A stretch of DNA of 64,000 nt from Candidatus Aenigmatarchaeota archaeon (GTDB taxonomy: Archaea > Aenigmatarchaeota > Aenigmatarchaeia > CG10238-14): contig JAOAJH010000005.1 in assembly GCA_026414305.1 (NCBI GenBank), forward strand, positions 1,612 to 65,611. Reading direction: 5' to 3'. This document shows, in pieces, positions 18,006 to 21,730 of this stretch; the stretch's first letter is position 1; each line of letters starts with the position of its first letter. The notes below the pieces were generated by a model. The model ran no database searches. It was given only the letters and a program-made list of their open reading frames with translations, and was not told the DNA's origin. A program made the position numbers and the translations under genes.

Positions 18006-19508
18006 ATGAAAAATCTGTCATATGTTAATTATGAAAAATTCAAGCCAAGGATTTATCAAGAACTTATAGCAAACACAGCAATAAAGAAAAACACGCTTTG
18101 CATACTTCCTACAGGTCTTGGAAAAACATATGTAGCAATTCTGGTAGCTTCTTGGATTCTTGAAAATACAAGAGGCAAGGTTTTGATGATAGCGCCAACA
18201 AGGCCATTGGTGAATCAGCACATGAAAACTTTTTCATCATCTATGAATATTGACAAAAAACTTCTTGTAGCTCTTACAGGCAAAATAAGGCAGGATGACA
18301 GGAAAGAATTGTACAAGATTGGGAAAATATTTTTTGCCACTCCACAAATAATAAAGAATGATGTTGATAGTGGCTTGCTTGACTTGTCTGAATTCAGCTT
18401 ACTTGTGGTTGACGAATGCCATAGATCTGTAAAAAAATATGCTTACACAGAAGTTGCTGAAAGATATTTCAACCAATCATATCACCCTCTTGTTTTGGGA
18501 TTGACAGCATCGCCAGGTGGTATGCAAGATAAGATTGACGAAGTAAAAAAGAAGTTGAGAATAGATGCGATTGAGGTCAGAACAGAAAAGGATGTTGATG
18601 TGCAGCCATATGTCAAGCAGACAAAAATTGAGCAGATTTACGTTGAACTACCTGAAGATTTCATATGGATAAAAAATCTGCTTGAAGATTATTATAGACA
18701 AAGGCTTAACGAGCTTCTAAGAGCTGGCTTGATATTTTCCATGAGAACAAGCAAAAAAGAGCTATTGGATTTGCAAAAAAGAATCGGTAAATTGTATGAT
18801 GAAACAAAAGATAAAAACGCAGCAAGGTTTCTTGTTATATGCTCTCAAGCAATAAAAATCGAACATGCATTATCTTTGATTGAGACACAAGGGATATATT
18901 CTTTGCATAGGTATTTTCTTGAAATGAAAAAAAATGGGACATCTTCTTCAAAATCCATAATAAATGACAAAAGAATCTCAGAGGCATTGAAAAGGATAAA
19001 TGAGCTTTATGTTAAAGGTGTTGAGCATCCAAAAATGCTAAAGCTTGTTGAAATAATAAAAAATGAAGTTGAAATGAAAAAAAACGTGAAAATAATTGTT
19101 TTTGCGAACTTCAGAGACACTGTTAGCCAAATAAGATCATATCTTTCTAAAAGTGGCATAGAGTCAAGAGAATTTATAGGTCAGGCTAAAAAAGGTGGTA
19201 AAGGTTTGTCACAAAAAGAGCAGATACAAATGATAAATGAGTTTGAATACGAAATGTTCAATGTTCTTATTGCAACAAGCATAGGCGAAGAAGGCTTGTC
19301 TATACCCGCTGTTGACATAGTCATATTTTACGAGCCTGTACCCAGCGAGATAAGAACAATACAAAGAAGGGGAAGGACTGGAAGGACAGAATCCGGAAGA
19401 GTCATATTTTTAATAACAAAAAACACAAGGGATGAATGGTATTATTGGAGTGCTTTTAACAAAGAAAAAAGAATGAAAAACATTATAAATGAATTAAAGA
19501 CAAAATGA
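18006..19508 (+). CDS. hef: Hef/FANCM-type SF2 DEAH helicase; helicase part of a split Hef
   Basis: Motif I ILPTGLGKT, motif II LLVVDECH, motif III TASPG and motif VI QRRGRTGR. About 500 aa, the size of the Hef helicase region. Confidence 0.8.
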   Translation: MKNLSYVNYEKFKPRIYQELIANTAIKKNTLCILPTGLGKTYVAILVASWILENTRGKVLMIAPTRPLVNQHMKTFSSSMNIDKKLLVALTGKIRQDDRKELYKIGKIFFATPQIIKNDVDSGLLDLSEFSLLVVDECHRSVKKYAYTEVAERYFNQSYHPLVLGLTASPGGMQDKIDEVKKKLRIDAIEVRTEKDVDVQPYVKQTKIEQIYVELPEDFIWIKNLLEDYYRQRLNELLRAGLIFSMRTSKKELLDLQKRIGKLYDETKDKNAARFLVICSQAIKIEHALSLIETQGIYSLHRYFLEMKKNGTSSSKSIINDKRISEALKRINELYVKGVEHPKMLKLVEIIKNEVEMKKNVKIIVFANFRDTVSQIRSYLSKSGIESREFIGQAKKGGKGLSQKEQIQMINEFEYEMFNVLIATSIGEEGLSIPAVDIVIFYEPVPSEIRTIQRRGRTGRTESGRVIFLITKNTRDEWYYWSAFNKEKRMKNIINELKTK

Positions 19509-19512
19509 TTTT

Positions 19513-20169
19513 ATGCAGTCAACACTTAAAACCAACAATGTTTTTATCCTTGCTGATGACAGGGAAAGCAAAAGTAACGTGTGCTTTTATCTCAAAGAAT
19601 TTGGCGCAAATGTCAGCTTCAAAAGGCTTGAAGTAGGTGATTTTCTTGTTTCTGACAGCATATGCATTGAAAGAAAGTCATCTAATGATTTCATAAATTC
19701 AATAATTGACGGCAGGCTGTTTGAGCAGGCAGAAAACATAAAAAACAATTTCAAGAAAGGAATAATTATGATAGAAGGAAACAATGCTGACGGCAGAATA
19801 ACTGAAAACGCGCTCAAAGCCAGCATAGCAACTGTCATAGTCAATTATGATGTAGATGTTTTAAGAACTGAAAACGAAAAGGAAACGGCCAGAATGATTT
19901 ATTACATAGCCAAAAAAGAACAGGAGCAAGGAAAGTCTGTTGTTATCAAAGGCAAGAGAAAAGGCAAGCAAATAGATGAGCTTCAATTACAGCTTTTGTG
20001 CTCTCTGCCTGGAATTTCAAACGGCCTTTCCAAAAAAATAACTGAAAAGTTTTCAAATATAAAAGAATTTGTAAATGCTGACCAAGACGAAATAAGAAAG
20101 ATAAAAGGTCTTGGCAAGACAAATGCAAAAAAAATATATGAAATATTCAATCAAGAGTGGAAAAAATGA
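19513..20169 (+). CDS. hef: ERCC4/XPF-type nuclease with C-terminal (HhH)2; nuclease part of Hef, encoded as a separate ORF
   Basis: GDFLVSDSICIERKSSNDFINSIIDGRLFEQ (the ERK nuclease motif), plus C-terminal LPGISNGLSKKI...IKGLGKTNAKKIYE helix-hairpin-helix pair. It starts 5 nt after the helicase stop, in a different frame. Confidence 0.75.
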   Translation: MQSTLKTNNVFILADDRESKSNVCFYLKEFGANVSFKRLEVGDFLVSDSICIERKSSNDFINSIIDGRLFEQAENIKNNFKKGIIMIEGNNADGRITENALKASIATVIVNYDVDVLRTENEKETARMIYYIAKKEQEQGKSVVIKGKRKGKQIDELQLQLLCSLPGISNGLSKKITEKFSNIKEFVNADQDEIRKIKGLGKTNAKKIYEIFNQEWKK

Positions 20170-21230
20170 AAGTAGTGATTGTCGGGTTTGATCCTGGAAC
20201 CAGGGCTGGCATTGCAATTTTGGATACATTTGGAAGGGTGATTTTTCTTTCCAGCAAAACAAACGCAGGCATTGCAACATTTTCCAAAATAATAACAAGC
20301 CACGGCAAACCTTTGATTGTTGCTACAGACAGAAAACCTGTTCCAAAAGGCGTTGAAAAGCTTGCAAAATCAGTTGGTGCAAAATTGTTTGTTCCCGAAG
20401 ACTCTATGAGTGTCAAAGAAAAGGAAGAGCTGGTAAGAAGATTTAACATAAAAATAAAAAACGATCATGAAAGAGATGCTCTTGCCGCTGTCGTCAAGGC
20501 ATACAAAAACTATGCAAACCTTCTCAGAAAGATATACATTTCCACTAGCAGCTTGGGTTTGAATGAAAAATACAATGAAATAGTTGAAAACATAATATTT
20601 GGAAGGGCTGACAACATTGATGAGGCAATAAACCTTGCTTTGTCTCCAAAAATTGCCGAGAAAAAAATTGAAAAGCCTACCGAAAAGCCTGTTGCTGCTA
20701 AAAAAGATACATCAAGATTGGAAAAGGATATTGAAATTCTCAAAAGATTCAACCAAAACTTGCTTAAAGAGAATGCACAACTGGTTGAAATGTTAAACAA
20801 GAACAGAGTCAGCAGCAATGACGGTTTGAAAAAGCAAATTGATGAATTGAGAAGATATTTGGATCTTGCTAAAAATTATAGGAGAATGGAGATTGAAAAG
20901 AAAATCCCTTTAATAGAAATTGAAAAAATTGACATAAACCTTTTGGGCAAGCTTGATGAATACATTGATCTTGCTGATAGAGTTGTTTTTGTCAAAAGAC
21001 CTGCTAATTTGCAGGAGCTAAATGAATACAAGATTGGAGCAGCAGTTGTGACTCAAGACGTTGAAAGATCAAAGCTTGATTTCCCAGTTATAATGATAAA
21101 AGAAAGGGACATAAAAGACTCGGGTGGAATAAAATACATTGAAAAGGAATTTTTTGACCAAACAATAAAGGATGCTCGAAAAGAGGGCTTGAAAGAATGG
21201 GTAAAAGAATACAGAAAAAGAAGGATTTGA
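20157..21230 (+). CDS. DUF460-like archaeal protein, predicted RNase H-like/RuvC-like fold
   Basis: N-terminus MKVVIVGFDPGTRAGIAILD resembles the DUF460 N-terminal motif (recollection). It overlaps the hef nuclease ORF by 13 nt. Confidence 0.4.
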   Translation: MEKMKVVIVGFDPGTRAGIAILDTFGRVIFLSSKTNAGIATFSKIITSHGKPLIVATDRKPVPKGVEKLAKSVGAKLFVPEDSMSVKEKEELVRRFNIKIKNDHERDALAAVVKAYKNYANLLRKIYISTSSLGLNEKYNEIVENIIFGRADNIDEAINLALSPKIAEKKIEKPTEKPVAAKKDTSRLEKDIEILKRFNQNLLKENAQLVEMLNKNRVSSNDGLKKQIDELRRYLDLAKNYRRMEIEKKIPLIEIEKIDINLLGKLDEYIDLADRVVFVKRPANLQELNEYKIGAAVVTQDVERSKLDFPVIMIKERDIKDSGGIKYIEKEFFDQTIKDARKEGLKEWVKEYRKRRI

Positions 21231-21730
21231 AATCTGCCTTTTTGTTTTTGTTAAAGCTAAATTTGTTTTTGCTGCCGTTTTACGCTATAATTTATTTTGA
21301 TGTCACATATTATCCTCTTCAGATAGCATTTTCATGGGTTGTACTATTTTTAACCAATCTTATGGGTTTTAATGTAAAAATGGACGGTGCAATGCTCTAC
21401 ATAGGGGAAAGTAATTATCCTGTATACATTTCATTTGATTGCATAGGATGGAAATCTAGCTATTCTTTGATTGCACTTGTTTTGGCCTCTCCGGGTCTTG
21501 TTAGAAAAAAGGCTGCTTTTATTGCAAAATGGGTCCCTGTGATCATAGCAATAAACATAGCAAGAGTTGTCATCGCAATTGGTTCTGGTGTTTTGATAAA
21601 TTTTGAATTCATGAAAGCGCTTCATGATTACATACTGCAGCCTGTAATGATATTAATTGTATTCCTTGTGTGGTCTGGGTATATCAAAAGTCTAAGCAAG
21701 GAGGACAAAATTTATAGTATCAGAAAATAA
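21197..21730 (+). CDS. Short exosortase/archaeosortase-family protein
   Basis: 177 aa, about 5 TM. Candidate catalytic Cys in DCIGWKSS, Arg in LVRKK, and NIARV matching the conserved NxxRV motif of exosortases. His in ALHDY. Confidence 0.5.
   Translation: MGKRIQKKKDLKSAFLFLLKLNLFLLPFYAIIYFDVTYYPLQIAFSWVVLFLTNLMGFNVKMDGAMLYIGESNYPVYISFDCIGWKSSYSLIALVLASPGLVRKKAAFIAKWVPVIIAINIARVVIAIGSGVLINFEFMKALHDYILQPVMILIVFLVWSGYIKSLSKEDKIYSIRK

Follow-up and report, generated by a model that had tools for sequence, protein, structure and literature searches.

A Hef-type helicase and a Hef-type nuclease are encoded by two neighbouring genes in a Candidatus Aenigmatarchaeota archaeon

The archaeal XPF family is divided in reviews into the long euryarchaeal Hef and the short crenarchaeal XPF (e.g. 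PMC7776575). We analysed a stretch of 64,000 nucleotides (nt) from Candidatus Aenigmatarchaeota archaeon, here called the window (assembly GCA_026414305.1, contig JAOAJH010000005.1, positions 1,612-65,611 of the forward strand), in which Hef is encoded as two independent neighbouring cistrons, each with all its catalytic motifs. The helicase core, the ERCC4 nuclease with (HhH)2, the domain order and the catalytic motifs are the same as in Hef of Pyrococcus furiosus, Thermococcus kodakarensis and Haloferax volcanii. In contrast to these proteins, the window encodes two polypeptides and lacks both the linker of about 50-60 residues and the PCNA-interacting protein (PIP)-like motif. Komori et al. 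2004, as cited in PMC7776575, reported that the two domains of P. furiosus Hef act cooperatively, and for T. kodakarensis Hef the cited literature describes the linker, a disordered region, as mediating partner binding.

A Hef helicase that stands alone has been described in Thermoplasma acidophilum, where the protein (taHef) has no nuclease domain and binds PCNA with its C-terminal PIP box QKTIFDF (Rohleder et al. 2016, PMC4838364). By its published description, taHef resembles the window helicase in being a stand-alone protein of about 500-510 amino acid residues (aa) that ends shortly after the core, and its PIP box matches in position and form the tail motif of split helicases from Aenigmatarchaeota relatives (KKTIKDFVS, KTLMDWVK). 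The window differs from taHef in that a co-oriented Hef-type nuclease gene directly follows the helicase gene. It also differs in that the window helicase has no QKTIFDF-like C-terminal box, whereas most members of its clade have one in the form h-x-[DE]-[FWY]. The initial annotation of this DNA had described euryarchaeal Hef as one polypeptide, to which taHef is a published exception.

The short XPF proteins of Crenarchaeota and Thaumarchaeota (e.g. Aeropyrum pernix, Saccharolobus solfataricus) are, like the window nuclease, stand-alone ERCC4 and (HhH)2 proteins of about 220 aa, and their PIP motif sits at the C-terminus. PCNA is reported in PMC2836553 as an essential cofactor of archaeal short XPF. 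The window nuclease differs from this group in having no C-terminal PIP tail, in scoring under the family cut-off and in having a Hef helicase gene as its neighbour. An analogous division of labour between helicase and nuclease is found in the eukaryotic FANCM/Mph1 and XPF/MUS81 proteins, which the window parallels by a different route, since the eukaryotic split came about by duplication and domain inactivation and not by gene fission; their partner proteins FAAP24, ERCC1 and EME1 are absent here. In Nanoarchaeum equitans and other DPANN archaea, which have reduced genomes, genes that are single elsewhere are encoded as two open reading frames (ORFs) divided at a domain boundary. Hef is not known to be one of the classic cases in N. 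equitans, and in contrast to those split genes the Hef halves described here mostly stay adjacent and co-oriented. The two domains of Hef are already treated separately in COG, and their independence at the domain level was shown biochemically before.

The two genes of the window and their motifs are arranged as follows.

18006-19508, forward strand: Hef-type superfamily 2 helicase/translocase gene, 500 aa, ATG start, TGA at 19506-19508 (ORF list, Pfam, NF010337, structure 1wp9)
18108-18128, forward strand: helicase motif I (Walker A) PTGLGKT, residues 35-41 (read from the sequence)
18411-18422, forward strand: helicase motif II DECH, residues 136-139 (read from the sequence)
19362-19385, forward strand: helicase motif VI QRRGRTGR, residues 453-460 (motif search)
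19509-19512, forward strand: intercistronic spacer TTTT, 4 nt, varying in sequence and length among relatives
19513-20169, forward strand: Hef-type ERCC4 nuclease gene with C-terminal (HhH)2, 218 aa, ATG start, TGA at 20167-20169 (Pfam, NF010337, structure 2bhn)
19555-19566, forward strand: metal-binding DDRE, residues 15-18 (motif search, sequence)
19636-19689, forward strand: ERCC4 catalytic signature GDF...ERKSSND, residues 42-59 (motif search, sequence)
19990-20163, forward strand: (HhH)2 DNA-binding/dimerisation region, residues ~160-217 (HHH_5 at 160-210, HHH_2 at 166-217, alignment to A. pernix XPF)

The ORF list and the sequence confirmed the initial annotation in that the helicase ends with the TGA at 19506-19508 and the nuclease starts at the ATG at 19513 in another frame, which is +1 relative to the helicase frame. 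The junction reads ACAAAATGATTTTATG, as had been described. In the first ORF, Pfam identified DEAD/ResIII (PF00270), the RNA_helicase_helical insertion (PF21210) and Helicase_C (PF00271), which corresponds to two RecA-like domains and a thumb-like helical insertion. Motif III (TASP) was found at residues 167-170, and together with motifs I, II and VI it completes the helicase core of Hef. When compared with the NCBIfam Hef model NF010337, the ORF covered profile positions 8-506 of 781 with 624.4 bits (cut-off 610 bits). Residues 11-491 matched the P. furiosus Hef helicase structure 1wp9 (E=3e-128), and the FANCM translocase structure 9el5 was also matched (1.6e-62). As expected of a helicase-only Hef, the 500-aa protein has the complete core and no ERCC4 domain; it stops about 9 residues past the core and ends with ...NIINELKTK.

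The second ORF contains ERCC4 (2.9e-33) and HHH_5/HHH_2 in Pfam, with GDF at residues 42-44 and ERKSSND at residues 53-59. The ERCC4 signature (GDxnERKx3D) and the (HhH)2 region that characterise Hef are present, but on a separate polypeptide. The protein covered positions 567-780 of NF010337 with 205 bits, which by itself lies below the cut-off for the whole protein. A. pernix XPF was the best structural match (2bhn, 2e-35), with the Hef nuclease of P. furiosus also matched (1j22, 1e-27); for helicase and nuclease alike, the matches to solved structures are far beyond chance. All the features that had been named at the outset, helicase motifs I, II, III and VI and an ERK-motif nuclease with (HhH)2, were located in the two ORFs. 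The nuclease begins with MQSTLK, and the split nucleases share the clade-specific start MQ[SKR][IT]LK[PT]. No C-terminal PIP extension was found in the nuclease, which ends at the last HhH helix (...IYEIFNQEWKK) and gave no match to the PIP pattern.

We also considered whether the nuclease was acquired separately as an XPF of the crenarchaeal type. This was not favoured, since the Hef model scored higher (205 bits) than the archaeal short Xpf model NF040956 (146.9 bits, under the 300-bit cut-off for family membership) and the protein is nearer to the nuclease domains of fused Hefs (37-38% identity; P0148, P0151) than to short XPFs of 229-236 aa (about 31%).

Whether the two genes represent a genuine split or a single-nucleotide frameshift had been left as alternatives in the initial annotation. 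The comparison with related genomes strongly supported the split, which is kept across the clade with variable spacers and intervening genes, and refuted the frameshift. A collection of 5.8 billion proteins was searched with the helicase, and the 120 best matches, which come from many independent assemblies and range from 99% to 47% identity, were all 500-531 aa long; ERCC4 was found in none of the 120. Down to 40% identity, the best homologues of the nuclease stood alone, with lengths of 217-225 aa, and fused or partial forms appeared only at 37-38%.

The window belongs to an Aenigmatarchaeota population whose nearest named relative is GCA_018920365.1. The same gene pair was present in loci L001 and L002 (84% helicase identity) and in L003 (74%), with 4-nt spacers of differing sequence (GTTG, GCAA). 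In L004 and L005 (59% identity), two genes on the opposite strand lie between helicase and nuclease, and in L006 (48%) an EamA transporter gene is found there. The locus L087, from an independent metagenome-assembled genome (MAG) with 96% nucleotide identity to 18006-20169, has an identical junction. The ENA contig L088 reads TTTTT in place of the TTTT of the window, which changes the frame offset and leaves both ORFs unaffected.

Across 25 loci, the distance from the helicase stop to the nuclease start was -16, -4, -1, 0, 2, 4, 5, 29-40, 109, 463, 889 and 1156 nt, and each of the three possible frame offsets was represented, as was each stop codon (TGA, TAA, TAG). The offset is +1 in the window, +2 in L088 and L007 and 0 in L009 and L012, with overlaps elsewhere. 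Because spacing, frame offset and stop codon vary over these loci, a sequencing error and a recoding into a fusion protein were both ruled out. Between the window and L087, the non-synonymous and synonymous substitution rates (dN/dS) were 0.005/0.142 for the helicase and 0.011/0.315 for the nuclease, a ratio of about 0.04 in each case; against L001, dN was about 0.1 and dS was saturated. These rates indicate strong purifying selection on both genes.

The position of the break was examined in an alignment of fused Hefs with concatenated split pairs. In the fused proteins, Q-x-[TS]-L-x-x-[FWY] directly follows the helicase core and is itself followed by a variable linker. Split helicases end at once after the equivalent motif, for example with ...KKTIKDFVS, ...KTLMDWVK or ...NIKDFE at the stop codon. 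The initial annotation had asked whether the linker is intact, and it is not: it is gone in the alignment with fused Hefs, and the corresponding positions 507-566 of the Hef model (about 60) are missing from both ORFs. With a stop codon, a separate start and no linker, the locus does not encode the single linker-joined polypeptide that is typical of Hef.

Most relatives in the clade, with helicases of 510-517 aa, keep the PIP-like motif. In a comparison with P0004-P0120, the window helicase (C-terminus encoded at 19476-19508) and its nearest kin (P0001-3, P0011-12; 500-504 aa) are about 11 residues shorter and have no such motif after the core; as judged from the alignment, the sub-lineage of the window has lost the presumed PCNA-binding tail. 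The PIP pattern had a sole match in the window helicase, QKRIGKLY at residues 257-264, which lies inside the helical insertion and is regarded as a chance match.

The distribution of the two architectures was surveyed in one genome per GTDB species, which gave 80 loci that were classified with helicase and nuclease hidden Markov models built from the matches. A fused Hef was found at 49 of the 80 loci, with 728-841 aa apart from one ORF of 661 aa that is clipped by a contig end. These came from Woese-, Nano-, Undin- and Altiarchaeota, Hadarchaeales, Thermococci, Archaeoglobaceae and Methanosarcinales. A further 18 loci were split with the nuclease in the same locus, and at 13 only the helicase was seen in the flanking sequence available. 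A neighbour-joining tree of the helicase core, rooted at the midpoint, placed the window and L001-L006 within a clade of the Aenigmatarchaeota type, in which all 26 GTDB loci were split or helicase-only and none was fused. A gap of 40 nt or less between helicase and nuclease was seen in 19 diverged loci, the window included. The tree and the survey indicate that the split is old and clade-wide in the Aenigmatarchaeota (DPANN), and the split state is probably derived.

Splits were also observed elsewhere. L073, with a spacer of 109 nt (L073 5539-5649), is nested among fused Woesearchaeota, and the split loci L051 and L059 are labelled Pacearchaeota. On this distribution, hef fission appears to be recurrent in DPANN archaea, with independent splits outside the Aenigmatarchaeota. 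In a HMMER search of 1.84 billion cluster representatives, about one third of the top 150 clusters were 465-580 aa long and the others mostly 700-850 aa, so that helicase-only Hef is common in uncultured archaea. A split Hef in DPANN archaea or Aenigmatarchaeota was not found described in the literature searched, the coverage of which was incomplete, so novelty is unproven.

Taken together, these results make it very probable that the window carries a genuine two-gene Hef, which arose when a fused ancestral hef underwent fission in the ancestry of the Aenigmatarchaeota, and which thereby lost its linker. Several points weigh against this. Several clade members show no nuclease in the flanks of about 0.4-4 kb that their contigs provide around the helicase, and the two proteins may consequently work independently and not as one machine. 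The window helicase has no PIP-like tail, its presumed recruitment motif. The direction of the fission is read from the midpoint-rooted neighbour-joining tree and from the motif position, and co-transcription, translational coupling and any interaction between the two proteins, whether physical or functional, are what we infer.

The best surviving alternative involves the gene that directly follows the nuclease, which is listed here with its own downstream neighbour.

20166-21230, forward strand: DUF460 (PF04312/COG2433) gene, 354 aa (DUF460 match 2.8e-34)
21197-21730, forward strand: exosortase/archaeosortase-like membrane protein gene, 177 aa (PF09721, 8.4e-11), overlapping the 3' end of the DUF460 gene

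DUF460 proteins are confined to archaea and have an RNase H-like fold that resembles that of Holliday junction resolvases (PMC3985635). Its ATG overlaps the stop codon of the nuclease gene in the sequence ATGA at 20166-20169. The DUF460 gene directly follows the stand-alone nuclease gene in the window and in L001-L011, L013, L017, L038, L042 and L061 (e.g. L001 5851-6918, L003 6212-7249, L004 7361-8506, L006 7122-7607); in L055 about 2.3 kb separate the nuclease from the downstream DUF460 gene. The exosortase/archaeosortase-like gene is likewise a conserved downstream neighbour in relatives and is probably unrelated in function.

On this alternative, helicase and nuclease are fully divorced in function, the helicase being a taHef- or FANCM-like remodeller and the nuclease a short-XPF-like enzyme whose real partner is DUF460. 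The pair of nuclease and DUF460, often overlapping by ATGA, persists in L004-L006, where the helicase has moved away, which speaks for such a divorce, as do the clade members that have no nuclease in the flanks of the helicase. DUF460 was found beside a fused Hef at none of the 49 loci, which points the same way, but the DUF460 model was built from the Aenigmatarchaeota clade, and divergent members of the family beside fused Hefs may have escaped it. Against a full divorce stands the short gap of at most 40 nt in 19 diverged loci, which suggests continuing selection for co-expression. We consider the divorce possible, though not probable.

A related and more tentative idea, which we think rather unlikely, is that the fission freed the nuclease to form a new module with DUF460, the latter being a PCNA-tethered junction or fork nuclease that would work together with XPF. 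Long-form DUF460 proteins have the conserved C-terminal tail [LIF]-x-[EQKS]-W-[VIL]-[KN]-x-[YH]-[RK]-x-R-[RK]-[ILV]. In the window this tail (21150-21227) ends with ...GLKEWVKEYRKRRI, and the same was seen in L001-L005, L007-L010, L013 and L038. It resembles the h-x-[DE]-[FWY] tail of split helicases and the PCNA-binding QKTIFDF of Thermoplasma Hef, and may be a PCNA-binding motif. If such a module were true, the function of DUF460 would become approachable for the first time, and helicase, XPF and DUF460 would make up a fork-processing system of three components. In either case, the conserved pairing of nuclease and DUF460 is a testable lead on a family of unknown function.

A second alternative reverses the direction of change. 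Here the separate genes would be the state before the fusion that gave the euryarchaeal Hef, and this is how the initial annotation had used the term intermediate architecture. A helicase gene followed by an adjacent nuclease gene is indeed the look expected before a fusion, the Aenigmatarchaeota are a deep DPANN lineage, and the tree was a neighbour-joining one with midpoint rooting. However, fused Hefs surround the clade, being found in the Euryarchaeota and in most other sampled DPANN lineages (Woese-, Nano-, Undin- and Altiarchaeota). Split helicases keep the PIP-like motif that opens the linker at their extreme C-terminus, which places the break after this motif, and at least one other split, L073, is nested within fused Woesearchaeota, so fission repeats. 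An ancestral intermediate is not supported by these observations and we regard it as improbable. A secondary gene fission with loss of the linker is favoured because of the break position, the fused neighbouring lineages and the recurrent independent splits.

A third possibility was programmed recoding, either a +1 ribosomal frameshift or a read-through at AAA-TGA, which would yield a full-length fused Hef. A spacer of only 4 nt between the two ORFs, a nuclease frame that stays open through it and TGA as the stop codon of the closest relatives would all suit such an event. Neither the frame offset nor the stop codon is conserved, however, the spacer varies as well, and in distant relatives the genes are 0.4-1.2 kb apart with other genes between them. 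A conserved slippery or stimulatory element is absent; the Rfam scan of the whole 64 kb gave no family at the gathering score, neither a tRNA or rRNA nor any other known RNA. Recoding was rejected on these grounds as very improbable.

Least likely of all, with hardly any chance of being right, is that the A4-TGA-T4 run of a fused hef holds either a wrong base from sequencing or assembly or a newly arisen inactivating frameshift that leaves a pseudogene: the junction is flanked by two short homopolymer runs and the loss of a single A would join the frames (...ELKTNDFMQ...), but the same architecture is present in the 96%-identical independent assembly and in more than 100 diverged homologues, spacer length and frame vary in the clade with genes intervening in some relatives, both ORFs are under strong purifying selection, and the missing linker of about 50-60 residues is beyond the reach of a 1-nt error.

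For the genuine two-gene Hef, the following course of events is proposed. An ancestral fused hef would have broken just downstream of the PIP-like motif, with loss of the disordered region between helicase and nuclease. The helicase, nuclease and downstream DUF460 genes are probably co-transcribed, and translation of the nuclease would begin at its own ATG, through reinitiation 4 nt past the helicase stop or on an internal leaderless transcript. By homology, the nuclease is predicted to form an ERCC4/(HhH)2 homodimer that nicks fork and 3'-flap DNA, and the helicase to act as a fork-remodelling translocase of the FANCM/taHef type. The intact motifs and the purifying selection are consistent with fork-structure-specific cleavage and ATP-dependent fork remodelling. 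The two proteins may cooperate in trans at stalled replication forks, and their coordination would come from co-expression and shared substrates or partners in place of a covalent tether.

A Shine-Dalgarno signal was not found before the nuclease gene, which has little weight, as an SD-like motif precedes just 9 of the 51 long ORFs of the window. A TATA-like TTATAAAT is located at 19483-19490, within the helicase coding sequence and about 27 nt ahead of the nuclease ATG, and it is also conserved in the relatives L087, L088 and L001. This element could be the internal promoter of a leaderless nuclease-DUF460 transcript, or TTATAAAT could merely reflect I-I-N codons in an AT-rich genome. Over the whole window (1-64000), many co-oriented genes overlap by 4-40 nt.

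The two-gene Hef is a new architectural variant of a known enzyme, and split genes are familiar in DPANN archaea. The current understanding stands, in that the independence of the domains and a helicase-only Hef were already known. What is added to the scheme of long and short forms is that fused Hef is widespread in DPANN archaea, and that one phylum-level DPANN clade has a stable two-gene Hef with no disordered linker. The clade offers a natural experiment, in which the covalent coupling of helicase and nuclease and a partner-recruiting linker like that of Thermococcus would have been dispensable over long evolutionary time. For annotators, the junction should not be 'repaired' or flagged as a frameshift or pseudogene.

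Some further observations were made on relatives of the locus. The contig of L087 (GCA_039804145.1, JBDRZW010000046.1) has the same gene order as the window over about 8.5 kb, and its MAG is labelled 'candidate division WOR-3 bacterium'; this is almost certainly a mis-binned Aenigmatarchaeota contig. A helicase copy of 99% identity sits in a MAG with the label 'WOR-3 bacterium', probably on a mis-binned contig. Outside the window, LAGLIDADG inteins were found in Hef helicase homologues of 1000-1290 aa (P0175, P0184, P0235, P0183, P0191). They occupy several different conserved sites: directly behind motif I, at about residues 110-125, directly behind motif II (DECH), within Helicase_C, and inside ERCC4 or shortly ahead of it. 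The exteins of P0175 are 60% identical to the window helicase.

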